Source: Sulfolobales archaeon
GTDB taxonomy: Archaea > Thermoproteota > Thermoprotei_A > Sulfolobales > NBVN01
Length of the DNA stretch: 44,033 nt
Assembly (NCBI GenBank): GCA_038841535.1
Contig: JAWBTQ010000010.1
Span: 1 to 44,033, forward strand
Direction of reading: 5' to 3'
In this document: positions 1,098-44,033 of the stretch, piece by piece
How the letters are laid out: each line of letters starts with the position of its first letter
How positions within the stretch are numbered: position 1 is the first letter of the stretch
Position numbers and translations under genes: made by a program
The notes under the pieces: model-generated
The model's database searches: none
Told to the model about the DNA's origin: nothing
Seen by the model: only the letters and a program-made list of their open reading frames with translations

Positions 1098-1355
1098 ATT
1101 GTTTCGGGTTTCATATCTTTATATATTGGTTGATGTAGATGGGAACTCTTATAAGTGCCCTATATATGATGGTACTTGGAAGTAGTTCGATGAGAAGTCG
1201 AGACCCCCCAGGGGCTCTCTCCGAGACGCTCAAGATGTGGGGTTTAGGGGTGCCCCTGAGTGCCTCCGAGAATGTTGAGGTTTCGAGTGGGATATGGGGG
1301 AACGAGAATGGGACGATATCACCAACCAATACAAACCTATATAGGGGCTGAACCC
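1098..1355 (+). mobile_element. Family A dispersed element, copy 1 (MITE / putative omegaRNA cassette)
   Basis: Aligns end to end with the other copies; starts (A)TTGTTTCGGGTTTC, ends TACAAACCTATATAGGGGCTGAACCC. Confidence 0.85.
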
Positions 1356-1456
1356 TTTAACATATGGTTGGTAGCTAAACTACTATCTGGCGTTAAGTAG
1401 GAGTTCATGAATCCTACTAATTAACAGTTAGTAGAGTTTAGAGCAACAGTGATAGT

Positions 1457-1660
1457 ATGGGCAGTGGTATACCGCCTAAGGTCGCAGAGTACGTCGGGAA
1501 GCACCTGAGGTCTCCGGCTATGAGGGAGCAGATGATGTTCTTGCTCAACAGGATAGCCTCCGGAGAGTGCGTTACGTGGAGAGAGGTCGCTAATACCTCC
1601 GTCAAGCTACACTTCCAGAAGCTGAGGACCATGGGTCTGCTGGTCGGCGTGATAAGGGGT
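1457..1660 (+). pseudogene. 5' fragment of a small, possibly wHTH-like mobile-element gene abutting the integrase remnant
   Basis: Protein-like MREQMMFLLNRIASGECVTWREVANTSVKLHFQKLRTMGLL; beyond about 1660 the frame is antisense to the integrase. Confidence 0.4.
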
Positions 1661-2290
1661 CCAGGCAGGAGGTCGTGCCTAGTGAAGTACTTCGACACCA
1701 CCGCCGAGTCTCTAAACTCTCCCGCATGTTCGGACAGAGGATCCGGTAGCTCCTTGGGGAAGTAGACAAACTCGCGGGGCTTCCCACCGGTCAGCCCCAA
1801 GTAGTACCTGCAGAACTTTTCGAAGCACACAAGCCTGAGGACCTCTCTATCTAGCGTGGGGATGTAGACTATCTCCTTCGGCTTAAAGGTGGCTACTAGC
1901 TTCACTACGTGCTCCAGCCTGATGCCGGAGTAGTACATCAGAAGGTAGTAGAGGTAGTGTCTCTCCCTGAGGTACTTCAGGGTCTTCTCGAAGAGCTCTA
2001 AATCTATCTCGAACACTCTAACACCCGCCCTGTAGCCTCTAGAGGGGACTACCTCCATAAGCCAGCCGAACGTCTCGAGTGGGATCTTCCTCCTGAAGTA
2101 TATGTACTGAACGCAGTGTCTGAACACGTTCCTGAGCCACGTATTCTCGTGGTTTATACGTACTCCACGAGCTCTTCCGACAGCTCCCTTCCCTCTAAGT
2201 ACCTCTTGAAGATGCTCCTGTAATTAACGGTCTCGTTAGTAGAGACCTCCCACCACCTCTTATGCTCTCTGAGAAACCTCTCGAACTACA
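1660..2290 (-). pseudogene. Tyrosine integrase remnant (intC-like), frameshifted and C-terminally truncated
   Basis: YYLLMYYSGIRLEH box-I motif; upstream frameshifted segments FERFLREHKRWW..YRSIFKRYLEG/KELSEELVEYV; integrase-like sequence stops after SKYFTRHDLLP; lies directly 3' of a tRNA. Confidence 0.75.
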
Positions 2291-2401
2291 CCGACCGTTA
2301 TCAGACCTATGAAGAGTTACTGCTCTACATAAAAACGTTTCATGGCTACGAGGGATAGTCGTGAAACGATGGCCTAATAGATAACCAGATCCCTGGGAAT
2401 G

Positions 2402-2479
2402 TGGCGGGCCCGCCGGGATTTGAACCCGGGACCTCCGGCTCCGGAGGCCGGCGCCCTATCCTGGCTGGGCCACGGGCCC
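2402..2479 (-). tRNA. tRNA-Arg (anticodon CCG), CCA encoded, no intron
   Basis: Reverse complement GGGCCCGTGG...CCGGC-CTCCGGA-GCCGG...GGTTCAAATCC...GGGCCCGCCA forms a cloverleaf. Confidence 0.96.
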
Positions 2480-2630
2480 GTATAGTGCTTGTTTATTTCT
2501 TAATAGCTTTACTCTCCGCTCTCGTTTTTGTTTAATCCCTAGCTTTTATAAGGGAACTCTAGTACGGTTTACCGATAAGACCTAGATGCTGACCGCAATT
2601 TTAACAGAAGGGGCTCTCGTTTTATGCTTA

Positions 2631-2895
2631 GGGGTTCAGCTCTGATATAGGTTTGTATTGGTTGATTTTATTGCCTCATCTCTTACTCCCGCATCCTGCT
2701 CTGGTTCTCATCGGGCTTTGGGGCGTCCGGGGCGTCCTCGGCCACATCACATTGGTTTATCCTCGGGAGAGCCCGCACTTCATCTACGTAGCTCTCGACC
2801 CCTCATCTATGTACATCCACGCATATCACCATAAGGTACTTATAAACGTTTCGATCATATCGACAGACATAGGCAGATACGAAAACCGAAACAGT
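2631..2895 (-). mobile_element. Family A dispersed element, copy 2 (most diverged interior)
   Basis: Reverse complement starts ACTGTTTCGGTTTTC, contains GAAACGTTTATAAGT, ends TACAAACCTATATCAGAGCTGAACCCC. Confidence 0.85.
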
Positions 2896-2916
2896 TACAT
2901 AAGGCTTTGTCGGTTT

Positions 2917-5199
2917 CTACGCTATTTCTTCTGAGACCGCCCTACTGACACCACCAGCTTTATCGACCCGAATTACTCTATCGGATATGTTGATTATGGT
3001 ATCGTCGTGTGTAACGACTATGAGCTGCCTGAGGGACTTACTCAGCTCTTTTATGATGTCAAACACCGACTCCCTCCTCTCGGAGTCAAGATAGATGGTT
3101 GGCTCGTCGAGTATCAGAGTCGTAGGAGACCTACCCATGACTAGCTCGGCTAGAGCTAACCTGAGCGCTATGGAAACTCCGACTCTCTCACCTCCACTAG
3201 CGTTCTTTATCGGTACCTCACCCTCCGGGACTTTAACGAAGATCTGGAAGTCGTCGTTTATGGCGATATTAGGTAGTTCGAGCTTGCTCAGTATTCGGTT
3301 AGCCTTTTTCTCCAGCCCCACTCTCACGGCTTTCGTCAAGTTCTTGGCTACTTCTCCATCCTTACCTAAGTACTTTTCACCGAAAGCCTCTAGCAGCTCG
3401 AGTACCTTAGCCATCCGCTCGAGGCCCCTAATATCTCTCTCGTACTTCTCTACGTCCTCCCTCAGTTTCTCGACGAATTCTCTCGTCTTTTCAATAGACC
3501 CCCTAAGGCCCTCTATCTCACTAATAAGATTGCTCGACTTCTCCTGCGCTACCCTCAACTTGCTCTCCAAGTTCCGTCTCAACCTCTCGAGTTCTTCATC
3601 TCTCAGTGTACTAACATGCTCAAGCGAAATAACGGAAGGAGGTCTTAACTCCAGCTTAACAAGTAATGAAACAAGCTTATCGAACAGCTTCTCAGGGTCG
3701 ATGAAGGCGTCAGTAGATTCCCCCCTTGACTGCCTCCTCAGTATGTCGAGCTCGTTCTCAGCCCTAATGACTTCCTCTCGAAGCTTCTTGAGGGATTCGA
3801 CGCACTCGCCGACTTCCTGGAATTCTATACTTACCGAGGTACACAATTCTTCTGCTTTCTTCTTTAGTTGCCCCAGCTCTCCCTCCCTCTCCCTGAGATC
3901 CTTCTCAACGTTCTCCTTCTTGGGAAGAAGCTCTCGAAGACTCCTTAAAGCGTCGTCGACTAGCCGCCTCCTCTCTTCGAGCTCTTTAAGCTCTCTTCTC
4001 ACTCTCTCGAGATTCTTCTCGATATCCGAAATCTCCCCCGCTAGGTGTGCTTTCACTCTCTCAGGGCTTGCGATCCTCGAGCCGCAAACGGGGCATCTAT
4101 CACCGAGTTCGAACTTGCTGAGGAAGTCCTTTAGAAGCTCTAAGTGCTTTCTGTACCCTCCTTCTTGTTCTTTAAGGGTGCTTATACTACTCTCAACTTC
4201 GCAGCGTAGCTCCTCGAGCTTATCCACGGGTACTTCGAAGGTTCTCCAGGTCTTCTCTAGAAGGTCCCTCAACTCGTCGTCGACTCCTTGAAGTCTGCTC
4301 CTCAGGTTCACCACTTCATTAGCCACCCAAGTATATAGGTCAGAGTTCCATTCTTTCACAACCCCAAGACGCCTTACCACTCCTTCGAGCTCCCCAAGCT
4401 TCCTAAAGATCAAAGCCTTCCTTAACTCAATTACCGTGTCTATAGCTCTCTCAACGAGATCTAGCTTTTCATTTAGCACCTGCACCTCTCTGTCTAAGCC
4501 CTCTTTTTCTCTTAAGAGCTTATCGAGCTTGTCTTCCGAGTAGCTAAGTTCTCTCTTAAGCTTCTCAAGGTTCTTTCTAGCCTCATCGAGTATTCCCCTC
4601 TTGCTCTCGAGTTCTCTCTTCAGAACGCTTTTCTCGTTTTTAATAACAGCCTTGATACTGTCGAGAGCCTTCTCAAGGTAGCTGAGGCCGAGGAGGGAGA
4701 GCACCCACCGCTTCCTCTCGGAGTCTTCGATGTCTATTATCTTTGTTAGCTCGTCTTGGAGCGAGAATATTGTAGCACGAACAAGCTTCCTCAACTCACC
4801 GGAGGTGTAAGCCGGCAAGCCGATCAGCTTCCCGATCTCCCTAACTACGCTGAGAGCCCCAGACGCCCTTAACTTTCTGCTATTCTCTTCAAGCTCATAG
4901 AGGTGCGCTTCGCTAGAGCCCCTAGCATCGAGATCCCTCACGACTAAGTATCTCCTCCCCCCTATTTCAAGGAGTACTGAGACCTTTCCACTCCTCCTCC
5001 CCCTAGTAACTATGAACTCAGTCTTTCCTCCTCTGATGTCCGGTCCCCTGTCAACTAGTAAGGCTAGGTAAATAGCGTCGACTATTGTTGACTTGCCAGC
5101 GCCATTAGGTCCCACTATCGATACCACGCCGTCGGAGAAAACCACCTCAGTTTTTTCGTGTGAGAGAATGTTCTCGAGCCTAGCTTCCCTGATTATCAC
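2917..5199 (-). CDS. rad50: DNA double-strand break repair ATPase Rad50
   Basis: Walker A GPNGAGKST, central CPVCG zinc hook in coiled coil, signature SGGE, Walker B LILDEPT, VVTHD. Confidence 0.95.
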   Translation of the reverse strand: MIIREARLENILSHEKTEVVFSDGVVSIVGPNGAGKSTIVDAIYLALLVDRGPDIRGGKTEFIVTRGRRSGKVSVLLEIGGRRYLVVRDLDARGSSEAHLYELEENSRKLRASGALSVVREIGKLIGLPAYTSGELRKLVRATIFSLQDELTKIIDIEDSERKRWVLSLLGLSYLEKALDSIKAVIKNEKSVLKRELESKRGILDEARKNLEKLKRELSYSEDKLDKLLREKEGLDREVQVLNEKLDLVERAIDTVIELRKALIFRKLGELEGVVRRLGVVKEWNSDLYTWVANEVVNLRSRLQGVDDELRDLLEKTWRTFEVPVDKLEELRCEVESSISTLKEQEGGYRKHLELLKDFLSKFELGDRCPVCGSRIASPERVKAHLAGEISDIEKNLERVRRELKELEERRRLVDDALRSLRELLPKKENVEKDLREREGELGQLKKKAEELCTSVSIEFQEVGECVESLKKLREEVIRAENELDILRRQSRGESTDAFIDPEKLFDKLVSLLVKLELRPPSVISLEHVSTLRDEELERLRRNLESKLRVAQEKSSNLISEIEGLRGSIEKTREFVEKLREDVEKYERDIRGLERMAKVLELLEAFGEKYLGKDGEVAKNLTKAVRVGLEKKANRILSKLELPNIAINDDFQIFVKVPEGEVPIKNASGGERVGVSIALRLALAELVMGRSPTTLILDEPTIYLDSERRESVFDIIKELSKSLRQLIVVTHDDTIINISDRVIRVDKAGGVSRAVSEEIA

Positions 5200-6377
5200 T
5201 TCTTCCTCACCAACTTCTCGATCTTCTCTACGAGCTTCTCTCTCCCCAATACGTCTTTAATGAGCTTCTCTACAGCTTCATCGTCTTCACTACTTCTAAT
5301 GACTCCCAGTAACAGCTCTGCAATCTCAGGGTCTTTAGCTACTTCGTAAACCACTGACTCTAGAGTTAGTGGAGCCTCACCGAGATCTTCCGAACTCCGC
5401 TCCTCAGATTCGGCGACCTCAGGACCTACCGGCTTGTAGCCTAGAACTAATCCGCGACGCACTAACTCATCCAGGCGGCTCCTAACTCTCTCCCACTGGT
5501 CTACATGCCTCGAGAACTCCACATAGAGTATCGGAGGTTTTCCGCTCTCACCCAGTGCAAGCTTGCTGAGCCTCCCCTCCAGGTCGCTGAAGCCCCTGAC
5601 TCCCTCCATTACTACGATCCTCCTAAACCTGCTGAGCTTAATCCAGTTAACAACTACATCGCTCTTGCTTAAGTCAACTAAAGCCACGTACCTCTCGCTA
5701 CTTGCTTCAGACACTGCTAGAGCCTCAGTAGAACCGGGGTATACGACCGGTGTATTACCGTGTCTCAACGAATACCTCGTGTGGTAGTCTCCCAGAGCCA
5801 CATAGTTGTATCCTGCAGCGTCGAGATCTACTAGGGAAGCGTGAGATGTGGGAAGACCGAGCTCCTTGAGCAACAGGTGTGCCATAAGAACTCTCCTCAC
5901 AGCTTCCGCCTTCCTGAGCCTCCCAACCCATTCACTAAATACCTCGGGTGGTGAGTATGGTACAGCAGTAACACCGAGCTCGCCTGTGCGCAAACTCACC
6001 ACGTGAGTTCTGGGCTCGCTGAGGGCTAGAACCCTAGCTACTCCGACTTCTTCTAATACCTTCAGCGGTGACACCTCAGCTCGCTTGGGTTGGTCGTGCT
6101 GACCTGCTACCACTAAGAACGGTATTCCAGCAACAGAGAGCCTCTTGAGGGACTTAACAGCGTAGTAGTACGTCCTCGGGCTTGGTTTAAAATCGTCAAA
6201 TAGGTCTCCGCAGTGGATCACTGCGTCAACCCTCTCTTGGACTGCTAAGTCTATTACCTCATCAAAAACATCGTAGAAGTCGAGCTCGCGTGCTCTAGAG
6301 TAGGTTAGTGGCTTCGACGAGCCTAAGTGCGTGTCAGATACGTGCAGGAGGAGCACTTCAGTCACCCTCCCATTCAC
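5196..6377 (-). CDS. mre11: DNA double-strand break repair nuclease Mre11
   Basis: SDTHLG, GDLFD, GQHD, YPGSTE phosphoesterase motifs; overlaps rad50 start. Confidence 0.93.
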   Translation of the reverse strand: MNGRVTEVLLLHVSDTHLGSSKPLTYSRARELDFYDVFDEVIDLAVQERVDAVIHCGDLFDDFKPSPRTYYYAVKSLKRLSVAGIPFLVVAGQHDQPKRAEVSPLKVLEEVGVARVLALSEPRTHVVSLRTGELGVTAVPYSPPEVFSEWVGRLRKAEAVRRVLMAHLLLKELGLPTSHASLVDLDAAGYNYVALGDYHTRYSLRHGNTPVVYPGSTEALAVSEASSERYVALVDLSKSDVVVNWIKLSRFRRIVVMEGVRGFSDLEGRLSKLALGESGKPPILYVEFSRHVDQWERVRSRLDELVRRGLVLGYKPVGPEVAESEERSSEDLGEAPLTLESVVYEVAKDPEIAELLLGVIRSSEDDEAVEKLIKDVLGREKLVEKIEKLVRKK

Positions 6378-7956
6378 TAGCTAGAGATTTAAAGTCTTCT
6401 CGCTTAACTCTAGCAGCATCTGCCCCACACCTCCACTTATCGACGATGTTTGGTGTAGCTCCAGCTCTCTTCCCTCTGTGTAGGTCTAATTTGACGTACG
6501 CCGGGTACCAGTCTGTCCATTCCCCTAAGAGCACTCCATGACCCGGTGGGAGAGATGGGAGAATATCCGTATACTCCTCGCTTAAGATGTCTGTAAGCTC
6601 CATAAGCACGCTCCTATCGGCCTTCTGGACTAAGCGCAAGAACGCATAGTTCTGAACCTGAGAGACCACTCCGGTGTCCAGAGCTCTCGGCCTCTGACTC
6701 ACTATTGCGAGCATCCCGCCGAACTTCCTTCCCTCCCTTATGAACCTCTGGAGGGCCTCCTTAGACCACGTACTAGCTTCTCTACCCAAAAACAGGTGAG
6801 CTTCCTCAACGACGAGTAAAGTTGGCGGTATGATCCCCTCTTTAAGGGACCAGAGGATGTTTTCTGCTATTACTTTAAGCATATAGTCCTTCTCGCTGTC
6901 TACTAGCGCTGATACATCTACTACGACGATTTTGCCGTAGCTCACTAACTCGCTCACATTAGGGCTTTCGAGACTGACTCGGTGCCACTCAAAGAAGTCA
7001 TCTATCTTATCGTTGATGTAGCTAACCGTTCTATCCTCCTTGGACTCTCCCTCGACATGCTCCTTCAGGAGCTCTCTGTACAGCATCAGGGGGTCTGGGA
7101 GTTTATTGGGCATCTCTCCATGCTCCAGTCCAACCCTAGAGACGTACAGTCTCCTAACTACCTCTACAGGCGGAATCACTTTACTCCGGGATTGCTCAAA
7201 TATGTCGGCATTCAACTTTCTCAGGGCATTTCTTAATATCCTTCTCTGCTTGGTTGCAGCCGGCTCGGGAATTATGAAGTTAACGAGGAGTCCTATCGGT
7301 ACCTTAAGTAGGTTTATTAGCGCTTCATGAACGCTTACGACGACGTCTTTAGATTCACTCACAAGCCCCCCGTACTCACCATGGACGTCGAATATTACTA
7401 CGGAACCACCTATCTGAGCTATCCTATCGGCTAGTATTGCTACTAAGTTGCTCTTACCCGAACCCGTAGTCCCAGCTATTAGTAAGTGCTTAGCGAGTGA
7501 GTTAACTCTAGCCCTGATTTCCAGAGACTCGAATCCGACTAAGGAACCAACTCTGATGCCTCTAGTTGGTTCGCAACTATAGATCATTCTGAGGTGCTCT
7601 AGGCGGGCGAGGTAAACCGGGGTTTCAGGTGGTGGAGGATACGTCGGGAACTCGGGTCTGCCCTTAGTTATGTCTGCGATTAGTAGGACCTTCATGTAGC
7701 TTTCCCTCTTTAAGTCACTCATGTAACTCTCGAAAGGCCCTAAGCCTGGGCTAACGATTATCGGTATTACAGACCTATACACTGTTGAGCCAACTATCCC
7801 AATTACTTCCCTCTCCTCCTCTGCGTCTCTCACCTGGTCCTTGGCTTTGAACCTCATGTAGACATAAGTCCCGGAAGATACTGGGTAGTTAGACTTTATG
7901 TCTACCTCGGTTGGTGTTGAGTATTCGCCAACTATACCTATAGGCTTCAAGCTCAC
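6358..7956 (-). CDS. herA: HerA helicase/translocase
   Basis: HAS-barrel-like N-terminus, GTTGSGKS, VVEEAH, REGRKFG, SQRP. Confidence 0.93.
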   Translation of the reverse strand: MSLKPIGIVGEYSTPTEVDIKSNYPVSSGTYVYMRFKAKDQVRDAEEEREVIGIVGSTVYRSVIPIIVSPGLGPFESYMSDLKRESYMKVLLIADITKGRPEFPTYPPPPETPVYLARLEHLRMIYSCEPTRGIRVGSLVGFESLEIRARVNSLAKHLLIAGTTGSGKSNLVAILADRIAQIGGSVVIFDVHGEYGGLVSESKDVVVSVHEALINLLKVPIGLLVNFIIPEPAATKQRRILRNALRKLNADIFEQSRSKVIPPVEVVRRLYVSRVGLEHGEMPNKLPDPLMLYRELLKEHVEGESKEDRTVSYINDKIDDFFEWHRVSLESPNVSELVSYGKIVVVDVSALVDSEKDYMLKVIAENILWSLKEGIIPPTLLVVEEAHLFLGREASTWSKEALQRFIREGRKFGGMLAIVSQRPRALDTGVVSQVQNYAFLRLVQKADRSVLMELTDILSEEYTDILPSLPPGHGVLLGEWTDWYPAYVKLDLHRGKRAGATPNIVDKWRCGADAARVKREDFKSLASEWEGD

Positions 7957-9023
7957 ACTACTTCACCCAAAAGCTCTCTTCCGGTAGGTATAGACGAAAA
8001 GCCTAGTTTGAGGAGTAGGTACCTAAGCTCCCGACCGCTTATTTTACTCAAGTTGTGTGCTAACTTCAGGGGATCCGGGTAGCCTGTGTGGGAATATGGG
8101 TAGAGTTCCGATAAGACTTCTACAAGCTCCTCGGGGCTCCACTTACCTGGCATAGTAACCTGAAAAGCTTGAGCAGGCGGGCTAAAGACTACGTACGTGA
8201 CTGTAATAGGCATCAGGGGCTCCAGGAAAGACCGGTCTTCTTGGTCTAAAGAGTTTAGGGGTCTCGGCATCTCCTTGAAGCTATATATGTAGACGGGCTC
8301 CAATAGTAAGGCCTTCTTCGGGAGCCGCCCTATTCTCTTCATCAGTTCGATGAGCACTAAGTCGTTCACTCTATCCCCAAGCTTCTCGAGTAGCTCGGGA
8401 CTAGACACTCTATCCGTATAGTAGCTCCTCCTAATGCTCTTAGCTATAAAGAGAGGAGTGGCACCGGTTGCTACTATAGACTTAACACCTCTAACGACCT
8501 CACGCCAAATGTCTCTAAACCTAGAGGGTCTATCCTTAAAGGACTTGAGACTCCGCGGGATCTCCGGAAACTTGCTGTACCACAAAAAGGAGAAAAGAGA
8601 TCCGTCAAATAGAGACACATCAGCTCCCTCAGATACTCTCACTAAAGCCGAGACCTCGAGTCTTTTCGAAATAAACTGTACGGACCTCATCACGACCTCG
8701 TCAGCAGTAACATCGCTTACGCGTAGCGACGGAATAAAGTATCCGGCGTCTGCGTCGACCAGGCACTCCGTAGACGAGGTCTTACCCGGTGAAACCCTGA
8801 TTGCTGCGGACTGCGCTGCATAAACTAAGAACATAGCATAAGACTTCAACGCCCAGCTAGAGTCTCCGGCTGCTACTATAGGGGGAGACTTGGGAGTAGT
8901 TCTTAGCTCGAAAAACTCGACCCCTTTAAAAGTATCGAGGAGGTCCTTCACTTCTCCGATTCTTGTAAATAAGCTTCCAACGACACTGCTTAAAGCGCTT
9001 ACTAAGCTATCGTGTATAGGCAT
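7953..9023 (-). CDS. nurA: NurA 5'-3' nuclease
   Basis: AGDSS, LFDGSL, GYPDPLKLAH motifs; operon with herA-mre11-rad50. Confidence 0.88.
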   Translation of the reverse strand: MPIHDSLVSALSSVVGSLFTRIGEVKDLLDTFKGVEFFELRTTPKSPPIVAAGDSSWALKSYAMFLVYAAQSAAIRVSPGKTSSTECLVDADAGYFIPSLRVSDVTADEVVMRSVQFISKRLEVSALVRVSEGADVSLFDGSLFSFLWYSKFPEIPRSLKSFKDRPSRFRDIWREVVRGVKSIVATGATPLFIAKSIRRSYYTDRVSSPELLEKLGDRVNDLVLIELMKRIGRLPKKALLLEPVYIYSFKEMPRPLNSLDQEDRSFLEPLMPITVTYVVFSPPAQAFQVTMPGKWSPEELVEVLSELYPYSHTGYPDPLKLAHNLSKISGRELRYLLLKLGFSSIPTGRELLGEVV

Positions 9024-11957: not shown

Positions 11958-12855
11958 AGAGTAGTAGATGATAATAGATAAATGAAGAGGCTCTATTTCA
12001 GGATCGTAGAGGATTTCTATATTTCGAGTCAGAATGAGTCAGAGGTATGTGATCTACGTAGTACGAGTTGAAGCTCTCGAGTATTTCCAAGAAGACTGTG
12101 AACTCAGCATTCTCGATATTCTTTTACTCATCTCTAGGTTCGCGTTAGTAACATTTACTCTGTAATTTACTCTATAGCATTCGGCAATTCGAGAGTAGGA
12201 TTCAGCAAGGTTGCAATAATAGCCCAGAGAGGACATACCTCCTTACACAAAGAGCCGTTGCTACCACTCAGCTGATCAGGACCAGAGTATGCCTCAACGC
12301 TCTGATGGGAATATTTATTCATTTATCGGCGCTCTTAATGAGGTTCTCAGCTCACGAGGTGTATGTATACAAAGAAGATGAAGAGTAGTACTTTCATTAC
12401 CTCTTAACTTAGAGACTCCATGCTAATGGTGGCTTCGCTAAATTTGTATTAAGGTTTTATAATCATTGCCATGACATACCCTAGGCACTTAATTCATTCC
12501 TATTCTTCTTCCTAGTTTACCCTAGAATGCACATAACCAAGCGTATTGCTTACTAGTCTCTGAAGAATGACCTCCAGAGATAATTGCTAGTCTTTTAAAC
12601 CTTAGCTACAAAACTTTTTCCTATTAACAGAACTCGTGTTCCTGGAATCTAGGTTAGGGCATACCACTCCCCAAAACATGCGGAGAAAACGGGAGAGCTT
12701 GTTAATAAGCTCAATAGAACCGAGTCTTCAAAGGTCTATAAACAAACTTTCGCTCAATACTGCCTTCTTAGAGCACCTACGTGGCTCGTCGGAGCGATTA
12801 GCTCGCTAGCTATAGCGACTCAGAGTGAATAAGAGTGTGGCGTGAGCCTAAAGCA

Positions 12856-13114
12856 ACTGTTTCGGGTTTCACATCTCTTCATATTTGTTTATGTGGATGG
12901 AAACTCTTAAGTACTCTATGTGTAGTAGTGTGTGGGGATAGTTCGATGAGGGGTTGAGAGCTCCCTAGGGGCTCTCCCCGAGATACTCAAGATGTGGGGG
13001 TCTAGGGGTGCCCCTGAAAGCCCCTAAGGGTGGTGCAGACCCAAGACCTATGCGGGGGAAAGAGGGTGAGGCGATGAAACCACCTAACATAAACCTATAC
13101 AAGAGCTGAACCCC
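12856..13114 (+). mobile_element. Family A dispersed element, copy 3
   Basis: ACTGTTTCGGGTTTC...GAAACTCTTAAGTA...GAGAGCTCCCTAGGGGCTCTC...CAAGAGCTGAACCCC. Confidence 0.9.
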
Positions 13115-13175
13115 TACTGCTGTGTGTGCGTACGTAGTTAGCGTGGTTAGTCTCGCTGGGTAGTTTTTTAGGTTT

Positions 13176-14465
13176 ATGGATTATAGTAGTGAGAGTCTTA
13201 GTATCGCGTGCTTGTGGGTGTGTAAGTTGGAGGAGGCTCTACTTTCGGGTAGTCCCACGGTTTTTGCTAGGCAGAAGATGTTTAAGTACATGGGGCTAGA
13301 GAGGCTTGAGGGCCTCGTTGCCGGCTTATTTGCCCCCTTGGGAGTGGAGTCTGCTGGCGTTGCTGAAGCTCTATACCGAGTTCTCGCTGAAGACGTAGTG
13401 TCACCTAAGGACCTGCCCGAATTTAGCGTATCGCACGTTGATGGTTTTGCTCTATCTGAGTGTGATAGCAGAGTGTTTAAGGTTGTGAGTAGTGAGGTTC
13501 TCGATCGATGTGAAGCAGCACCTGTTGAGACAGGTTACCCGGTACCAGAGGGTGCGGTAGCGGTAGTCCCCGTAGAGTCCGTGAGGTTTCTGGAGGGAGG
13601 TGAGTTAGTTGTCCCTAGAAGCTACGAGAGGTTTCACGAGATCGTTAAGAAGGGTTCTGATGTATCTAGAGGTGAAATCCTTTGCGAGAAGGGTTGGGTA
13701 CTTACTCCACCGCTAGCTAGAGCCCTGCTCGAGTTGGGTATTGAGGAGGTGAAGGTATATATGAGGCCTAGAGCTCTTGTGGTGCCTATAGGCTCCGAGT
13801 TTACTGAGGAAGTCAAGAGAGAGTCTAGCAGTGTACTAATAAAAGCTATGTGTCAGGCTGTTGGAGCCTTAGTCGAGGTATCTAAGCCTGTAGATGACTC
13901 TGTTGAAGCCGTAAAGAAGGCCGTAGAGAAAGGTGTAGATATGTACGACGTAGTTGCGACAATAGGTGGAGCATCACTTGGGAGTAAGGACTTTACACTA
14001 TCCGCACTACTTGAGCTACCCAGTAGTGCTCTCGTAGTTAGAGGGCTGGCTATACAACCAGGTAGAGTGACCTCGCTAGCTACTGTTAGAGGTAAGCCAG
14101 TAATCCTACTACCAGGCTTAGTGCAGTCAACAGTAGTGGGAGCAATATTCCTCCTCCAGCCCTTAATCAAGAGACTTCAGGGAGCTCGCCCACGAGCTCA
14201 CTACCCAATTGGCCTCTATAGACTGGCTTCAGACTACTCCTACACTGGTAGGTTCACTAGCTTCAAGAGACTGAGGTTCGTAAAGCTAATTAGTGAAGAG
14301 CTACTCGAGGTAGATGTCATTGAGACACCTTCACCAGTGCAGAAGACGATAGTGACTTCCCACGGTTTCATTATACTAGAGAGTGGAGTCACTAGCCTAA
14401 GTAAGGGTTCATACGTCACAGTCTACAGAGCCCCGGGGCTCTACGCTGAAGCTCCGCTAACATAG
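13176..14465 (+). CDS. moeA: Molybdopterin molybdenumtransferase MoeA (likely start about 13278, MFKYM)
   Basis: RVLAEDVVSPKDLPEFSVSHVDGFA, ETGYPVPEGAVAVV, GGASLGSKDF, IQPG..LLPG. Confidence 0.88.
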   Translation: MDYSSESLSIACLWVCKLEEALLSGSPTVFARQKMFKYMGLERLEGLVAGLFAPLGVESAGVAEALYRVLAEDVVSPKDLPEFSVSHVDGFALSECDSRVFKVVSSEVLDRCEAAPVETGYPVPEGAVAVVPVESVRFLEGGELVVPRSYERFHEIVKKGSDVSRGEILCEKGWVLTPPLARALLELGIEEVKVYMRPRALVVPIGSEFTEEVKRESSSVLIKAMCQAVGALVEVSKPVDDSVEAVKKAVEKGVDMYDVVATIGGASLGSKDFTLSALLELPSSALVVRGLAIQPGRVTSLATVRGKPVILLPGLVQSTVVGAIFLLQPLIKRLQGARPRAHYPIGLYRLASDYSYTGRFTSFKRLRFVKLISEELLEVDVIETPSPVQKTIVTSHGFIILESGVTSLSKGSYVTVYRAPGLYAEAPLT

Positions 14466-14500
14466 TGAAGGCTCTGCTCGCAGTTACTCAGCCTCTCGCA

Positions 14501-14802
14501 ACTGTTTGTGTTTCTTATCGGTTCATATCGGTTGGTGCTATTCCTCCTACGATTAATGCGTAAACCTCTTTTCCGCGGTCTAGCGGAAACGTTCATAAGT
14601 ATCTCTACATAGGTTAGTGAGTGGAGACTCCCCGATGAGGGGTTGAGAGCTCCCTAGGGGCTCTCCCCGAGATACTCAAGATGTGGGGGTCTAGGGGTGC
14701 CCCTGAAAGCCCCTAAGGGTAGTGCAGACCCAAGACTGATGCAGGGGAAAAGAGATGAGGCAACGAAACCAACAAATACAAACCTATACAAGAGCTGAAC
14801 CC
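14501..14802 (+). mobile_element. Family A dispersed element, copy 4 (longer, different left part)
   Basis: From GATGAGGGG (~14634) near-identical to copies 3 and 5; left end ACTGTTTGTG with TATCGGTT repeated at 10-bp spacing. Confidence 0.9.
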
Positions 14803-15194
14803 TGAGAAGGTTCTACGTGACTCGGTGTTGCCGCAGTCTCTTAAGAATCTCCTAGCGAACAAACAGTGTAAAAAGGGAAAACTGAACAGAAATGACTTTC
14901 TCTAAGCGATATCCTTATTCAAACTTAGAATCGCCGAATCATTCGGACACGTAACCACGGACTGAGATAACTCAAAACGTGTAAACTTTCTAGAAGCGTT
15001 AAGATGGTAAATGACTGCGGACTTTTATTATGTACTTTTTAGTTGGTAAGTGGATTGGCGCGAGATCCTCCGATAAAGACATCACCTCTATCGGCCGGTA
15101 GATTACGGTAGGTGATGGCAGACGCATTTCGTCCTTAGGGATGCAGTAAGTATGTCACTGCGATACATATGCTCTAAAGCAGGGTGAGGGTAGA

Positions 15195-17240
15195 TTGCGC
15201 TGGGTAGAAGCGCTCAATAGAGCCAGGTTCCTACTGCCGGCTTCTGCCTTACTCGCACTATTCTTAGTCGCTAGGTCTGCGGACGGTGGGAGTCTTGCTA
15301 TGCGCGTAGCCTACGACTACGGTGTGTGGTACTCCACTATTGTTGTCACAGTGGGTGTGTTACTCGATCTTAGGGCTCTAGGCTGGACTTATAGCTATTG
15401 CTCTACACTCTTACTGAGTCTGCTTAGCGCTCTAGCAGTGGTGATCGGGAGAGTCTCTTCACTAGCCATTAATTGTACTCTTTATCTACCATACGATGTG
15501 ATGCCCCTTTTTGGGTCTCGCTACACGAGCGAGAGTTTCCTCATTTCTCTTGCGTTGGCTTCGGTTGGTGTTTCTCTATCTCTAGTCTCTCTCTCGATAC
15601 ACTCGGCTCTAGGTAGACCCCTTGTATTTAGAGAAGGGAGGCCTGCGAATGCGGTGATAGCAAGTGCCTGGAACCGGCTCAGGGCAGCTTTCTCGATCAC
15701 GAACCTGTACCTACCAACCTCCTTCCTGCTCGGCTTCATACTAAGATTCATCCCGGAGGTCATCTGGTGGCCATGGCATATAGGTTGGGATACCGTTGAG
15801 TACGTAGCTCACTTAGAGGACTTCATGGTCAGGCTTAATCCGCTCGCTAGCTACTACTGGATGGGTGGGTTGAGGAACATCCCACCTATGTTGAACCTCA
15901 TCGCATTAGTCCCTGCGTACGCCTTTGGAGCCTGGGCTGTGTTTAAGGTGTACCCAGCAGTAGCCTACGGCCTTCTCTGTCTCTCCTCAGCTCTACTAGC
16001 TAGGAGGGTTTTTCGCGTTAGTGGCTGGGGAGCTTTCCTGACTTCAGCTATAACAGCTCTCTACGTCCTCAACTTGAGGATCTCATGGGACTACCAGAGG
16101 CAGTTGTTGGGCTCAGTCTTCATGCTCCTCTCGCTAGCGGTTCTCGATGGACCCGGGAGATGGGGGGCTAGGAGGGCTGTTGCCGCAGCTACTCTACTGG
16201 TTTGCTCGGCTCTAAGCCACGAAGTCACTGGGTTTTTCGCTGCTATAGCGTCTCTCGCTTTCCTACTGAAGTCAGCCCTCGATAAAGAGCCGCGAGGTGC
16301 TTTAACTGGCTCTATAGCTTTAGCAGCCTCGGTGGCTCTAGAGCTGTGGTACTGGGGTGTGCCCTTCATGGAGGTCCCAGGTGTTGGTACTCTACCTGCT
16401 GGCTTAGTCTCATACTTTGATGTAGATGCATCAGAGGTCATTAGCTACTTATTCGCTGGATTCGGGGCCGTACTCCCCCTAGCTCTACTTTCCCTCCTAG
16501 AGCGAGACTCTAGGTGTACCTATTGCGGGATAGCTCTAGCTTCACTCTTTCTGGCAGGTCTATCACCACTTCTAGCACCCTATACTTCGGTAGCCGTTTG
16601 GTATAGGTTCATGATAGGAGCAGCACCAATAGCTTCAACACTAGCAGGTGCTTGGGTAGCCAAGTCCTCGGCTGGGTGGAGGTTCCAGCTAGCCTACATT
16701 ACCCTGCTCATGGTTCTAGCGTTTCCCTTTGCCTACACGGTCTTCGGAGCGACTAAGTATGCATACTCCATGAGGGAGTTCCCTCTGTTGGGGCTCACAC
16801 CACTACCCAATGACCAGAAGTACTTAGAGGACCTAGCGGAAGTAGCTGAAGTAGTGAAAAGCTTAGACCCCGGTATTGCGGTAGTAGCTCCAGACTGGGT
16901 AGCTAGGTGGGTCCACCTATCTAAGAGAAACCCCTCACCCAGTGAGCTAGTGTGGGTCTGGCCACGCTTAAACAGCACTATAGACTCCGTAGTGAGAGAG
17001 CTCGAACTCGGTAAAGCATACCTCATCACACTACTCCAGCTAAAGAACTCCACTGACCTCGCGGTAGTAGAAGTCTGGAGTGGGAAAGTCCTCTACCTAT
17101 ACTACGTGGAGACTAAGGCCAGCCCACCAAATCTTAAAGCACTCCAGGTGCTTCCCCCACCTATGAAGAAGCACCTAATTACGCATATCTCTACCTTCTT
17201 TTATCCCGATAACGTAGCTACATTAATGGCAATAGAGTAA
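15195..17240 (+). CDS. Polytopic membrane protein, probable GT-C fold glycosyltransferase
   Basis: Many TM helices; LRFIPE...GWDTVEY loop after a TM and RISWDYQRQLLG, typical of archaeal GT-C-like proteins. Confidence 0.6.
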   Translation: MRWVEALNRARFLLPASALLALFLVARSADGGSLAMRVAYDYGVWYSTIVVTVGVLLDLRALGWTYSYCSTLLLSLLSALAVVIGRVSSLAINCTLYLPYDVMPLFGSRYTSESFLISLALASVGVSLSLVSLSIHSALGRPLVFREGRPANAVIASAWNRLRAAFSITNLYLPTSFLLGFILRFIPEVIWWPWHIGWDTVEYVAHLEDFMVRLNPLASYYWMGGLRNIPPMLNLIALVPAYAFGAWAVFKVYPAVAYGLLCLSSALLARRVFRVSGWGAFLTSAITALYVLNLRISWDYQRQLLGSVFMLLSLAVLDGPGRWGARRAVAAATLLVCSALSHEVTGFFAAIASLAFLLKSALDKEPRGALTGSIALAASVALELWYWGVPFMEVPGVGTLPAGLVSYFDVDASEVISYLFAGFGAVLPLALLSLLERDSRCTYCGIALASLFLAGLSPLLAPYTSVAVWYRFMIGAAPIASTLAGAWVAKSSAGWRFQLAYITLLMVLAFPFAYTVFGATKYAYSMREFPLLGLTPLPNDQKYLEDLAEVAEVVKSLDPGIAVVAPDWVARWVHLSKRNPSPSELVWVWPRLNSTIDSVVRELELGKAYLITLLQLKNSTDLAVVEVWSGKVLYLYYVETKASPPNLKALQVLPPPMKKHLITHISTFFYPDNVATLMAIE

Positions 17241-39006: not shown

Positions 39007-39055
39007 CCCTATTACCTAATTACAGAGGTACAGCATAGCTTAAAAGCATTCCAAG

Positions 39056-39628: not shown

Positions 39629-39727
39629 AACAGTGTAAGTTAATATACTTAGCTAATCCATCGGGCAAGGTTTCAGCCGCACGTCAGATACTTATCTTCT
39701 CGAGTTAGCTGCATCTTCGGGATAGGA

Positions 39728-40546
39728 TTGGTTAGGTGTAGTTTGAGTAAAGAAGCAATAATGAGGGTAGTCTCGATACTTAAAGTTATTTCACTGAATG
39801 ACGTACTCGATATCGAGGAAGCAGACCCTCAGTACGAGTCTGCTGTAGCAGTGTGTTCTGCTGGTGGTATAGCAGGTGCTGTCTCCTTCTTTCTAGTTGC
39901 TCTATCAGCCTATAGACTCAGGTGCACAGGTGAGGAGTACTGGAGTAGATTTACTAAGCACTTCCTTGAGAAGGGATCAGTCCTTGGTCCAGTGGATACG
40001 GCACTAAGCTTCGTGCTAGAGGATAAATGTAGCTCCTTCCTTAGAGAAGCTAAAGTGAGTAGGATAAGGAAGCTCTCTAGTTACTCAGCTACGATAAGTG
40101 AGTTAATATATCGTTGCGACTTTAGGCAGCTTTGGAGTCTGACCTCTAAGGTGCTACAATCTGACCCTAGCAGCAAGACGGTAGTCTTCGCTGTAAAGAT
40201 GGGGTATTACTGCGGGAGAGCCTTAAAGCGGTGTAAGGGCCCTCTGCCACTAGACATCCCCATACCTGTAGATAGTAGAGTAGCTAGAGCCACAGTAAAC
40301 TTAGGCATCATACAGGGTCTGTCTACGGAGGAAGTACTAAAAAACTGTAAACGAGAGGTTGTGGAGGCCTGGAGAGTCGTTAGTGAAGAAACCGGCATAC
40401 CCTCTATCCACCTAGACACACTAGTTTGGGCTCTCCAGAACCCCTCTACGTTCTCTAAGGCTTTAGCTAAAATAGGATCGAGTAAGTCGGTAGCAGCCCT
40501 CAGGAATTTGATGGCAGTAATCAGAAGATCAGATAGCGAGCTGTGA
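39728..40546 (+). CDS. N-glycosylase/DNA lyase (archaeal 8-oxoguanine glycosylase AGOG)
   Basis: DPQY, GEEYW, KTVVFAVKM, IPIPVDSRV, HLDTLVW. Confidence 0.9.
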   Translation: MVRCSLSKEAIMRVVSILKVISLNDVLDIEEADPQYESAVAVCSAGGIAGAVSFFLVALSAYRLRCTGEEYWSRFTKHFLEKGSVLGPVDTALSFVLEDKCSSFLREAKVSRIRKLSSYSATISELIYRCDFRQLWSLTSKVLQSDPSSKTVVFAVKMGYYCGRALKRCKGPLPLDIPIPVDSRVARATVNLGIIQGLSTEEVLKNCKREVVEAWRVVSEETGIPSIHLDTLVWALQNPSTFSKALAKIGSSKSVAALRNLMAVIRRSDSEL

Positions 40547-40635
40547 GGGGGCTAACCTGCTACGAGCTCTTTAGTTACATAATGGTAGCACTTATAAAGT
40601 GAGTATATAGATCCGTAAATAATGGATGGTGAAAG

Positions 40636-42003
40636 ATGTGCGCGCAAATACGTGAGGTAAGCTCAGCTAAGAGAATTGCTGAAGTAAGTCTGCATAGCCA
40701 CATAAAGGGTCTCGGCTTAGATGATAAAGGAGAACCCCTACGTGTAGCTGATGGAATAGTTGGTCAAATGGAGGCAAGGAAAAGTGCCGCTATTGTAGTC
40801 GAGCTAGTAAAGCAAGGTAAGTTTCAAGGTAAGGGTGTCCTACTTGTTGGACCTCCAGGGACTGGAAAGACTGCCTTAGCTTACGCTATAGCGAGAGAGC
40901 TCGGTGAAGACACTCCCTTTGTGACTATCCACGCATCCGAGGTTTACTCATTAGAAGCTAAGAAGACGGAAGTCCTAATGAGAGCGGTAAGAAAGGCTAT
41001 GGGTGTAAGAATTCGGGAGACTCGGAGGGTCTACGAGGGTGCTGTTAAGGAGATTAAGGTTGCTTACGGGAAGCATCCGTTTAACCCCTACTTGAGGATT
41101 CCGCGAGAAGCCAGAATAACTCTCGAGACCAGAGACGACAGCCTCTCTCTGACTGTTGGTGAGGAGATCACGTCACAGTTACTGAAACTAGGGATTAGGA
41201 GGGGAGACCTGATATGGATAGACGCTGAGACTGGTTTAGTCCACAAGGTAGGTAGAGTCAAGGGAGTCGAGAAGGCTAAGTATTACGACGTAGACGTGTG
41301 GGATGTGTCAGAGGAGTTACCTAAGGGTCCAGTGAAGAAAGAGAAGGAGATAACGAGGGTATTTACCTTTAACGACCTAGATGTTGCTGTAGCGTCTCAG
41401 AGGATCTCGTTAATAGGCTTTCTAGGGGTAGAACTAGAGAGGGAGATAGATGAGGAAGTCAGGAGAACAGTCAACTCCCAGATTAAGAAGATCGTTGACG
41501 AGGGAAAGGGGGAGCTCATCCCAGGAGTACTCTTTATAGACGATTCTCACATGCTAGACCTAGAGTGCTTTGCGTTTCTATCTAAGATAATGGAGAGCGA
41601 GTTCGCACCCATAATAATAATGGCTACCAACAGAGGCATAACTAAGATATATGGTACAGACATAGAGTCACCTCATGGGATACCTCTCGACATCCTAGAT
41701 AGACTGCTCATAATCCCTGTGAGGCCGTACACGAAGGATGAGATCAAAGAGATAGTGAAAATAAGGTCTGAAGAAGAGGAGGTTGTTCTCTCTAGTGACG
41801 CCTTAGAGCTACTAGCGGACCTAGGAGTCAAGTACAGTCTGAGATATGCCATCCAGCTCCTAAGACCGGCCAGTGTAGCCGCATTGAAGAAGGGACGTAG
41901 TGAAGTTAAAGCAGAGGACGTACTGGAGGTCAGCAAGCAGTTCATAGACACGAAGAGAAGTGTAGAGTTCATCAAGGAGTTCGAGGAAAAGTTTTTAAAG
42001 TAG
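40636..42003 (+). CDS. TIP49 / RuvB-like helicase
   Basis: HSHIKGLGLD, GPPGTGKT, PGVLFIDD.HMLD, ATNRG, PHGIP.D.LDR. Confidence 0.95.
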   Translation: MCAQIREVSSAKRIAEVSLHSHIKGLGLDDKGEPLRVADGIVGQMEARKSAAIVVELVKQGKFQGKGVLLVGPPGTGKTALAYAIARELGEDTPFVTIHASEVYSLEAKKTEVLMRAVRKAMGVRIRETRRVYEGAVKEIKVAYGKHPFNPYLRIPREARITLETRDDSLSLTVGEEITSQLLKLGIRRGDLIWIDAETGLVHKVGRVKGVEKAKYYDVDVWDVSEELPKGPVKKEKEITRVFTFNDLDVAVASQRISLIGFLGVELEREIDEEVRRTVNSQIKKIVDEGKGELIPGVLFIDDSHMLDLECFAFLSKIMESEFAPIIIMATNRGITKIYGTDIESPHGIPLDILDRLLIIPVRPYTKDEIKEIVKIRSEEEEVVLSSDALELLADLGVKYSLRYAIQLLRPASVAALKKGRSEVKAEDVLEVSKQFIDTKRSVEFIKEFEEKFLK

Positions 42004-42123
42004 GCCGGCCCCTCCAGCTGTGGAGAGAGCTTAGTTAGCTTAGCATCACTTTCTCCCTTCTCCCACCCCTACCGGGATTCGTAGAGTCGGAAGCCTAGTG
42101 GTGATCATCTATGTGGAGTAGTT

Positions 42124-42510
42124 CTATTTCACAGCTCTTTCCGCTACTCTGCTACTGAGCAAGGCGCTTGCTAGTAGTATTAAGAGCCAGAGCGGTAGAG
42201 CTATTTCGAAGGCAACGTCCGGCGCCCTTCTCCACAGAGTCCTCAACAGCGCAAAGTACGCTGTGCCGACGATGTAGTACGCTGTTATCGAAGCGTACAC
42301 CGAGCTCCTCAATCCGAGCTTCGTGCGCATGGAGAGTAGAACGCCGATAGCTAGCGATATCGATATAGGCATGACCGTCAATAGAAGCACTGCTGAAGCC
42401 AGGTTCAAGGACGGAAACACGCTAAGAACCCAGAAGGGCCAACCCCACCACCCAATGAAAGCGAGGACATACCCAAGGCTCGTCACAGGGTCATGCGTTA
42501 GTGGGAGCAT
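42124..42510 (-). CDS. Hypothetical membrane protein (hydrophobic frame continues upstream without a start codon)
   Basis: About 4 TM segments; upstream in-frame RTLIGVLASYFLALLFLALL. Confidence 0.6.
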   Translation of the reverse strand: MLPLTHDPVTSLGYVLAFIGWWGWPFWVLSVFPSLNLASAVLLLTVMPISISLAIGVLLSMRTKLGLRSSVYASITAYYIVGTAYFALLRTLWRRAPDVAFEIALPLWLLILLASALLSSRVAERAVK

Positions 42511-42540
42511 CAGTAGTGCGAGAAACAGTAGTGCGAGAAA
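42511..42540. repeat. 15-bp perfect tandem duplication
   Basis: CAGTAGTGCGAGAAA x2 (FLALL x2 on minus strand). Confidence 0.85.
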
Positions 42541-42679
42541 GTACGATGCTAAGACCCCAATTAGAGTGCGTGAAACCCTGCTAATGGGGCTTCCCTGACT
42601 AGATTAGCTTAGTTAAGCTAATAAAAGAAGATCAGACCTGTCCCAGTCAACCCTCTCTCTATGCGTTGAGTACAAGGCC

Positions 42680-43215
42680 TATAAACTTGGCGAAAATCGG
42701 AAAGCGGATACCACTGTAAATTCGTAGTCTCTGCTTATGACTGTGCAAATTTTGACATTCACAGAGCTGTAGAGAGTGTAGCTTATTAAACCATTGCGTT
42801 ATAAGTCGACGAGAATACAGCCGTGAATGGACGTTCTAACTCGTAGTACCAGAAAAGCAGCTTCGCAAGGTTGACGCATGCTGCAAACACAACGCTGTGG
42901 GAGCTCTCTGGCTAGGGCCAAGCTTCCTAATTGAGAACTCTCGCCCTCAGAAGCTACTGGGGCTGTTTTCTTCTTGATGTTTTGAGGGTTATGTTTATGA
43001 TCGTTGCCTATGGTTATACCTGGGATGAACTTGGGTGGTGATTGGAGCACTACTCCAAGCCTCCCAGAGCTTGAACTAGGTGGGAGCTACGTGCCGTTTG
43101 GCTCGACGGCCACCCATGAACCCACGCAGACACCTAAGTCCGCGTAGACGAAGTAGAAGTCCCTGGACGCGAAAGAACACTAACAAACGAAGATGAATAT
43201 CCAGGGACAAACGGT
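42680..43215 (+). pseudogene. Heavily decayed tnpB (IS200/IS605/IS607 OrfB) remnant with right end
   Basis: Fragments KLGENRKAD, RCGSSL, GGSYVPFGSTATHEP..KSL; terminates GGGACAAACGGT like the element at 168-397. Confidence 0.5.
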
Positions 43216-43229
43216 TTTGGGTGTCCACT

Positions 43230-43778
43230 CTATATGTCTGAAACACCCCTTACGTAAAGGTAGAGAGTGGCTTCTCTGTACCCGAGTGAGACCCTCATGA
43301 TGTGGATCGGTCTCCACCCAGGGATCTCGAAGTCTAGAGTGATTACCCTAGTCCCCAGCCTGAGCTCTCTTTCTAACTTAGGTCTCAGAGCTCTATTGAC
43401 GGAGGTCAGTAGGTACATGTAGACTATGGTAGCATCTCTGAGGCTGACGTTGAAGAAGTCGTCGTTTATGAAAGTAATCCTATCGATGACCTTGAGCCTC
43501 TCAGCCGCTTCCTTAGCTTTCTTGATTAGCTCGGGGTTAATCTCTACGCAAACTCCTTTAGCACCGTGAAGAGATGCCTCAATGACCACCCTCCCGTCAC
43601 CACACCCTAAGTCATAGAACACGTCTTCTTTCGTGGGTTTAGCCAGCATTATTATATAGGGAAGAATCTCCTCTCTAGTCGGGACCCATGGAGCTTGAGC
43701 CAGAGGATGCGAGTAGACCACTCCGAGTAGCACCCAGAGATCTCCTATTTCATCCAAGTTTTTAAGGACATCATCCAC
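43230..43778 (-). CDS. Class I SAM-dependent methyltransferase, aKMT-like protein lysine methyltransferase
   Basis: PWVPT, YDLGCGDGR, VEIN, VYMYLL...LRPKLE. Confidence 0.85.
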   Translation of the reverse strand: MDDVLKNLDEIGDLWVLLGVVYSHPLAQAPWVPTREEILPYIIMLAKPTKEDVFYDLGCGDGRVVIEASLHGAKGVCVEINPELIKKAKEAAERLKVIDRITFINDDFFNVSLRDATIVYMYLLTSVNRALRPKLERELRLGTRVITLDFEIPGWRPIHIMRVSLGYREATLYLYVRGVSDI

Positions 43779-43823
43779 CGCGCTATCACCCCTTCAGCAG
43801 TTATCATGGAGGTACTTATGTAC

Positions 43824-44033
43824 GGGGTTCAGCTCTGATATAGGTTTGTATTTGTTGGTTTCGTTGCCTCATCTCTTTTCCCCTGCATCAGTCTTGGGTC
43901 TGCACTACCCTTAGGGGCTTTCAGGGGCACCCCTAGACCCCCACATCTTGAGTATCTCGGGGAGAGCCCCTAGGGAGCTCTCAACCCCTCATCGAACTAT
44001 CCCCACACACTACTACACATAGAGTACTTAAGA
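43824..44033 (-). mobile_element. Family A dispersed element, copy 5 (left end beyond window)
   Basis: Reverse complement TCTTAAGTACTCTATGTG...GATGAGGGG...TATCAGAGCTGAACCCC. Confidence 0.9.

Follow-up and report, generated by a model that had tools for sequence, protein, structure and literature searches.

Gene-less derivatives of IS1341-type elements, formed by internal deletion and in one case keeping C-terminal coding sequence, were described from haloarchaea in 2011 (Dyall-Smith et al. 2011, PMC3119063, in the sections drawn on here). Such palindrome-associated transposable elements (PATEs) frequently code for omegaRNAs that depend on TnpB supplied in trans, according to the relevant part of Meers et al. 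2023 (PMC10055086), and use of an omegaRNA in trans by TnpB has been shown for a clostridial element (excerpted text of bioRxiv 10.1101/2023.11.20.567912). Here we analyze five dispersed repeats in a stretch of 44,033 nucleotides (nt) from a Sulfolobales archaeon (GCA_038841535.1, contig JAWBTQ010000010.1), which in its full length is referred to below as the window. The repeats are, almost certainly, copies of a non-autonomous miniature element of the PATE or MITE (miniature inverted-repeat transposable element) type, derived by internal deletion from an IS200/IS605-family, IS1341-type (tnpB-only) element that is still in the genome. A proposal made by analogy, and one that we regard as evenly balanced, is that the 3′ module of the repeats acts as the omegaRNA scaffold of the parental TnpB, used in trans for retention of the mini-elements.

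The five copies lie where a preliminary description of the window had placed them, and they can be aligned end to end (372 columns, 67% mean column identity). In BLAST comparisons with copy 3, copy 5 is the closest of the other four at 92% identity, followed by copy 4 (86%), copy 1 (73%) and copy 2 (68%); the E values run from 1e-13 to 1e-84, and to 1e-133 when all five copies are taken together. The common right end quoted earlier, ...ACCTATAnnnGnGCTGAACCC(C), and the five differing flanks beyond it are all correct, and a shared left end exists, but it does not start at (A)CTGTTT as had been stated; the true start lies 6 nt further upstream, after (A)GCCT. The likeness of the core to a TnpB C-terminal tail is genuine (window 12945-13064 aligns with TnpB residues 361-400 at 60% identity, E 3e-7), but the stop codon said to interrupt copies 3-5 had been assigned the wrong way round: the true tnpB frame is open in copies 3-5 and contains stops in copies 1 and 2. 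The peptide given for the core, LKMWGLGVPLSA..., is copy 1 read across its 1-nt deletion, and the parental frame reads RCGVLGVALNTPKGDAYPRPMRGKEMRR up to its stop codon; in the mini-elements the remnants of this frame span only about 40 codons. Copy 5 is incomplete solely through the end of the contig. The last 255 nt of the window (43779-44033) equal the first 255 nt of another contig of the same assembly (C1:1-255) with one mismatch, inside copy 5, so the two contigs are neighbors in the genome and the assembly was broken at the repeat; across this overlap copy 5 is complete on C1.

The parent was found in the assembly to which the window belongs (G000; 1,564,232 bases in 40 contigs, 83.8% complete, the window being contig C10; labels C1, C3, C4, C7, C9, C10, C13, C19 and C35 denote contigs of this assembly). 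Among 13 matches there to PF07282, the TnpB zinc-ribbon/TNB domain, one on C19 is followed immediately by a match to the 3′ half of the repeat, and the open reading frame (ORF) C19:1307-2518(-) encodes an intact TnpB of 403 aa. This protein scores 57.7 bits against PF07282 (cut-off 26.3) and has matches to 15 solved chains of TnpB/Cas12f type, in which the RuvC Glu and the last Asp align, the first RuvC Asp being assigned by motif only. Over a 135-nt segment made up of the last ~90 coding nt of the gene and ~45 nt downstream, identity to copy 3 is 83%. The left end of the C19 element matches copy 3 over 34 nt at 85%, and a profile built from 34 full-size mini-elements aligns with two 5′ stretches of this element, one at its left end (E 1.3e-9) and one over the first ~20 codons (E 8e-8). 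In 5′-to-3′ order the mini-element has a left end, then what remains of the tnpB promoter, next a hairpin derived from the first ~20 codons, and finally the last ~30 codons with the right end. Two deletions separate it from the parent, one within the left-end region and one of ~1.05 kb within tnpB; copy 4 has kept ~45 nt of the parental left end that the other copies lack. Both ends and the first codons being homologous to the tnpB element on C19, and elements of like architecture being present in relatives as well, the earlier view that the repeats are internally deleted tnpB elements is correct.

In related metagenome-assembled genomes (MAGs) the same left and right ends bracket full-length elements of ~1.49 kb, and seven mini-elements of matching build are present. 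The same TnpB protein occurs in public genomes at 51 loci, with 48-89% identity, in records whose titles name Ignisphaera, Desulfurococcaceae, Thermoproteota, Sulfolobales and one Nezhaarchaeota MAG. Within G000, other tnpB pieces with 73-85% identity lie at contig ends of C9, C35, C19 and C3, so that more full-length copies are probably present unassembled, and decayed tnpB fragments are found at C9:40726 and C1:173344. With copy 3 as query against G000, BLAST returns 43 matches, and a profile of four window copies returns 62 (E <= 1e-3), 34 of which span the whole model and are counted as full-size copies (239-313 nt). The flanks of these 34 are unrelated, with an information content of ~0 outside the element, and the genome holds ~47 distinct 3′ modules against one intact tnpB and fragments at contig ends. 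The preliminary description had recommended a BLAST search across the genome for counting copies and locating a full-length parent with tnpB or tnpA; the copies are counted here, and a tnpB parent with the same ends is present.

A short motif precedes the left ends. GCCT stands exactly at positions -10 to -7 in 30 of 42 left ends of this genome and in 22 of 29 from relatives (36/42 and 27/29 if up to one mismatch is allowed), against a genome-wide frequency of 0.0033 per position. The motif is preceded by A in 28/42 and 18/29, respectively, and the sequence further upstream is random. Target duplication is absent and the right flanks carry no repeat of the motif. By analogy with IS200/IS605 transposition, (A)GCCT can be read as a target-adjacent motif. 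At the other end, exact GAACC is present in 39 of the 48 right-end modules of G000, the commonest form being GAACCCC followed by T (19/39). The parental element (C19:1225-2800) shows a 31-nt, 77% inverted similarity between subterminal arms 50-80 and 1497-1527, with ATRTAGGTTTAT and CAGCT in common; an inverted similarity of this kind between the right and left regions is unusual by comparison with textbook IS200/IS605 ends. Copy 2 does not retain it. Small AT-rich stems can be made out by eye only. The 5′ hairpin forms in most copies (median z -1.67, z < -2 in 13/34), with loops of 3-25 nt.

No precise empty site that would fix the element boundary was found in contigs of four DNA runs, in relatives or in a metagenome scan. 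The DNA contigs of the four public runs break at repeat borders; a variant in three of them skips 2590-2925 (336 nt, comprising copy 2 with 41 and 24 nt of flank) and has seven other letters instead, at a depth similar to that of the main form in two runs. This variant is a population polymorphism and no precise excision. The metagenome scan, made with the 25-nt left flank of copy 3, returned one contig with an identical occupied site. The gene moeA (13176-14465) lies between copies 3 and 4, which share its region in the same orientation as each other (12850-14803), and orthologous moeA genes in two congeners (87% identity) have no element in the 250 nt upstream, the intergenic DNA being too diverged to yield a junction. 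Mini-element modules and a cognate tnpB (at least 50% identity) occur together in the same 6 of 30 relatives (G002, G003, G004, G007, G013 and G016), and at the thresholds used neither occurs alone in any of the 30.

Set beside the haloarchaeal PATEs, as presented in the part of PMC3119063 drawn on here, the element is alike in being gene-less and multi-copy, in the lack of classical terminal inverted repeats and of target duplication, in insertion after a short conserved oligonucleotide, and in origin by internal deletion of a tnpB transposon. It differs in host, which here belongs to a hyperthermophilic Thermoproteota lineage whose related records are titled as Ignisphaera or Desulfurococcaceae MAGs; in having kept, between its two deletions, a remnant of the promoter and a hairpin from 5′ coding sequence; and in the weakness of its near-terminal palindromes (31 nt at 77% in the parent, none in copy 2). 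Closer analogues may be listed in Tables S8 and S9 of PMC3119063. The PATE-like elements of the IS605 group in Geobacillus stearothermophilus, in the portion of PMC10055086 that describes them, likewise consist of left and right ends without a gene and follow the same trans logic as is proposed here; there, however, the host is bacterial, the cognate TnpA is known and RNA-seq support exists, whereas here no TnpA was found in the 83.8%-complete genome and the motif is (A)GCCT. The module also resembles, in its position and in having the adjacent flank as guide, the TnpB omegaRNA and the sense-overlapping RNAs that archaea have at IS1341-type tnpB 3′ ends (Gomes-Filho et al. 2015, PMC4615843, in the sections drawn on), from which it differs in that the copies stand without tnpB, match no Rfam family and have a partly supported structure. 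PATE, MITE or orphan copies are not mentioned in PMC12558985, and a literature search for TnpB with miniature inverted elements, or for archaeal MITEs with guide RNA, returned nothing relevant. Gene-less IS605 derivatives whose omegaRNAs are used in trans are a concept already published, as the pertinent part of PMC10055086 makes clear. As it stands, the finding is one of routine mobile-element annotation.

In characterized TnpB systems the omegaRNA scaffold lies where the mini-elements keep their ~135-nt 3′ module, which, as shown for the parent, overlaps the 3′ end of the C19 tnpB (a gene whose RuvC Glu and last Asp are aligned, the first Asp being assigned by motif) and the right end. The module is the best-conserved portion of the element. 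In all junction classes (the main class, one with ~20 extra 5′ coding nt, the GAGGGCAACC class and the short class) it opens at most ~5 nt before CTCAAGATGTGGGG, and truncation into it is seen in a single copy out of 34 (C7:14248). For the pair counts a RIBOSUM-scored consensus was used instead of the RNAalifold default, and two topologies were compared. Among 41 gene-less copies the 23-pair consensus has 89.2% of cells paired, against 84.5% in shuffles (0/500 of which reach the observed value) and 35-55% in slid controls, with a covariation score of 0.225 vs 0.160; when 83 copies including those linked to tnpB are taken, 90.7% of cells are paired and the score is 0.211 vs 0.148. The clearest covariation is seen at two neighboring base pairs, where 44-46 sequences have CG, 26-27 have GC and a few have other states; the swap is compensatory, from CC...GG to GG...CC, and lies in columns 64-65 and 84-85 of alignment A5 (around 13029-13050 in copy 3). 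In full-length TnpB this helix swap exchanges Pro and Gly codons in the C-terminal tail, and since the one change forces the other, nucleic-acid pairing seems to outrank protein in the TnpB tail. The intact module of the parent folds with z -2.11, 5 of 200 shuffles being as good.

If the module is such a scaffold, a mechanism can be outlined along the lines of the IS200/IS605/TnpB pathway (Meers et al., PMC10055086, in its relevant part). Copies would spread in trans by means of a single-strand "peel and paste" transposase and insert just after (A)GCCT. The module would be transcribed from the promoter remnant or by read-through, extending into the next 16-20 nt of chromosome as the guide, and the predicted RNA of ~150-200 nt would have its 5′ end close to the remnant of the tnpB start, or at CTCAAGATG, and its 3′ end 16-20 nt beyond GAACCCC. 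This RNA would bind TnpB supplied by a full-length copy; TnpB would then cut the empty site, (A)GCCT plus flank, that is left when a mini-element is excised, and repair from the sister chromosome would restore the mini-element. The outcome would be selfish retention borrowed in trans, rather than a guide library for the host.

A good deal weighs against this reading, and several of the points speak instead for inert relics, that is, for one ancient deletion derivative whose module is kept solely as a right end recognized by the transposase, without a functional RNA, and which decays slowly; we consider this quite possible, though we lean away from it. The modules of copies 1-5 fold no better than dinucleotide shuffles (z +0.67, +0.09, +0.72, +0.86 and +0.35). 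A search of public runs for window 12500-15200 turned up no RNA run. Covariation comes mostly from one helix with two linked variants and could reflect a few inherited events, a second topology scores equally (91.4% paired, covariation 0.211), and RNAalifold with default settings recovers only 7 pairs (-2.18 kcal/mol) from the 41 gene-less copies. Rfam gives no match at gathering score in the window and only chance-level values (E 0.69-7.5) on five loci, although it may hold no model for this lineage. Of the comparisons envisaged in the preliminary description, that with omegaRNA covariance models therefore came back without a matching family, and the check for covariation was divided, with pairing above shuffled and slid controls but mostly in one helix, two topologies tied and window modules that fold like shuffles. 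The TATA box is canonical in 16 of 34 full-size copies, weakened in 17 and lost in one, which makes it degenerate or lost in 18/34; of the window copies, 1 and 2 have a canonical box and 3-5 a degenerate one, and the youngest subfamily, to which copies 3 and 5 belong, has a 2-nt deletion in the box. Calling the copies promoter-bearing is thus apt for about half of the family but not for the rest, and the link to the tnpB promoter is one of position: the TATA region lies 30 nt from the next homologous block in mini-elements and 33 nt in the parent, and since local alignment of the TATA segment with the parental promoter is not significant (z <= 2.6 in 26 copies), homology is indicated by spacing only. 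In three or four short copies with differing flanks (C4:9138, C13:12872, C4:104533 and probably C4:1738) a left end that stops just before the TATA box is joined straight to the 3′ module, so the promoter region is dispensable for spread. The closest pairs of copies are only 92-94% identical (BLAST, copy 3 as query), and recent activity is therefore not indicated. The Y1 transposase PF01797 was not found in G000, 83.8% complete as it is; of the 31 genomes searched, 5 have it, among them 2 of the 9 other congeners, where it adjoins other tnpB families that are 24-34% identical to the C19 tnpB. Because the relatives are kin and not independent, the co-occurrence of modules and cognate tnpB is expected from shared descent alone, and the main deletion junction is common to most subfamilies and to the copies of relatives, which fits a single origin. 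What stands against relics is the module itself. The right end of IS608 or ISDra2 needs merely a short hairpin and a cleavage site, whereas here every junction class keeps the whole ~135 nt, beyond that need, with a single truncation among 34 copies; it is the best-conserved part of the element, and its pairing exceeds both kinds of control in gene-less copies, which are free of coding constraint.

The preliminary description had favored a dispersed library of stand-alone guide RNAs, comparable to a repeat-spacer system. That the host uses such a library, through TnpB, against other DNA or in regulation we judge very improbable, even though the number of scaffolds per tnpB is high, the flank is different at each copy and omegaRNA use in trans by TnpB works in bacteria (bioRxiv 10.1101/2023.11.20.567912, in the part cited above). 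The variable segment is the chromosome adjoining each insertion, and when 39 guides were compared with the genome, exact 16-nt matches at a second place arose solely from the overlap between C10 and C1. A flank that could serve as guide is a property of any IS200/IS605 element. The search of the flanks against viruses that had been suggested gave no credible match in IMG/VR: 18-mers of the five window guides have 2, 0, 3, 0 and 0 exact matches, none with GCCT upstream or a longer extension, which is chance level for 18-mers in such a collection. CRISPR (clustered regularly interspaced short palindromic repeats) arrays are similar in that a variable segment, which may guide a Cas12-related nuclease, comes after each repeat of a scaffold, but here there is no array, no adaptation and no sign that guides are acquired except by transposition, and the variable segments are the flanks of the element's own insertions rather than captured foreign DNA. 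With guides that are mere local chromosomal flanks, unlinked to foreign DNA, the repeat-spacer analogy fails. The copies are intergenic, and the orientation of their neighbors (18 same-strand, 14 convergent, 2 without a neighbor) shows no bias towards neighboring genes, which speaks against a regulatory library and equally against copies that work as mobile promoters or as cis-regulatory inserts, driving or silencing the genes beside them. For such inserts, the least probable explanation in our estimation, it can be said that same-strand genes begin 62 nt downstream of copy 3 and 45 nt downstream of copy 5 and that copy 2 lies upstream of a tRNA-Arg gene; the degenerate TATA boxes of copies 3-5 and the moeA orthologues of two congeners that lack an upstream element argue against them. 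Highly unlikely, too, is a co-opted form of retention in which the ~47 gene-less modules with their own flank guides, loaded by one or a few TnpBs, police dozens of chromosomal sites as a genome-wide guide set put to use by the host or by the elements collectively; were it true, the set could serve to block element loss, bias recombination or target incoming DNA that carries (A)GCCT and a matching sequence.

Table 1. Features of the five mini-element copies in the window. The flank after each right end is a candidate guide if the 3′ module is an omegaRNA scaffold; IMG/VR counts are exact 18-mer matches.
Feature	Position	Strand	Evidence or remark
Copy 1, mini-element	1092..1356 (end 1355/6)	+	alignment, profile match
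Copy 1, AGCCT flank motif	1087-1091	+	
Copy 1, TATA-like box, canonical	1146-1157	+	
Copy 1, 5′ hairpin	1192-1225	+	
Copy 1, start of 3′ module	1229	+	
Copy 1, right end GGGGCTGAACCC	1344-1355	+	
Copy 1, candidate guide flank after right end	1356..1375	+	2 IMG/VR matches
Copy 2, mini-element	2631..2901	-	alignment, profile match
Copy 2, AGCCT flank motif	2902-2906	-	
Copy 2, TATA box, canonical	2837-2848	-	
Copy 2, 5′ hairpin	2761-2804	-	
Copy 2, right end	2631-2643	-	
Copy 2, candidate guide flank, pointing towards tRNA-Arg 2402-2479(-)	2611..2630	-	0 IMG/VR matches
Copy 3, whole element	12850..13114	+	alignment, BLAST, profile
Copy 3, AGCCT flank motif	12845-12849	+	
Copy 3, left-end block, homologous to left end of full-length tnpB element	12850..~12902	+	34 nt at 85%; profile block E 1.3e-9
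Copy 3, TATA-like box ACTCTTAAGTAC, degenerate; positional counterpart of tnpB promoter	12903..12914	+	
Copy 3, hairpin GAGGGGTTGAGAGC...GGGCTCTCCCCGAG, from first ~20 tnpB codons	12948..12982	+	block E 8e-8; -19.3 kcal/mol, z -2.4
Copy 3, 3′ module (last ~30 tnpB codons and right end), presumed omegaRNA scaffold	12984..13114	+	135 nt, 83% to C19
Copy 3, CTCAAGATGTGGGG in 3′ module	12986	+	
Copy 3, right end, ending GAACCCC	13114	+	
Copy 3, candidate guide flank, upstream of moeA (13176-14465)	13115..13134	+	3 IMG/VR matches, no GCCT
Copy 4, mini-element	14495..14803 (end 14802/3)	+	alignment, profile match
Copy 4, AGCCT flank motif	14490-14494	+	
Copy 4, TATA-like box, degenerate	14590-14601	+	
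Copy 4, hairpin	14637-14671	+	
Copy 4, candidate guide flank	14803..14822	+	0 IMG/VR matches
Copy 5, cut by contig end; left part continues at C1:46-310	43824..44033	-	
Copy 5, candidate guide flank, upstream of methyltransferase gene 43230-43778(-)	43804..43823	-	0 IMG/VR matches

The gene content of the window is that of ordinary chromosome, with Rad50/Mre11/HerA/NurA, moeA, transporters, and ribosomal and RNase P proteins. Genes for Rad50-like, Mre11-like phosphoesterase, HerA and NurA proteins stand in a row at 2917-9023(-), the customary make-up of a DNA-end-resection operon in archaea. At 1438-2127(-), near the tRNA-Arg(CCG) gene at 2402-2479(-), an ORF of 229 aa carries an archaeal phage-integrase domain (PF16795, E 8e-8); it may be the remnant of an integrated element, and copies 1 and 2 are found on either side of this pair of genes.

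The setting of the element is a little-studied hyperthermophilic lineage. Its TnpB, compact at 403 aa and presumably thermostable, has in (A)GCCT a candidate motif that is not T-rich, and may be of interest for genome editing. If TnpB is indeed borrowed in trans, the family would be a natural case of non-autonomous elements parasitizing RNA-guided homing, with roughly forty scaffolds per nuclease gene.

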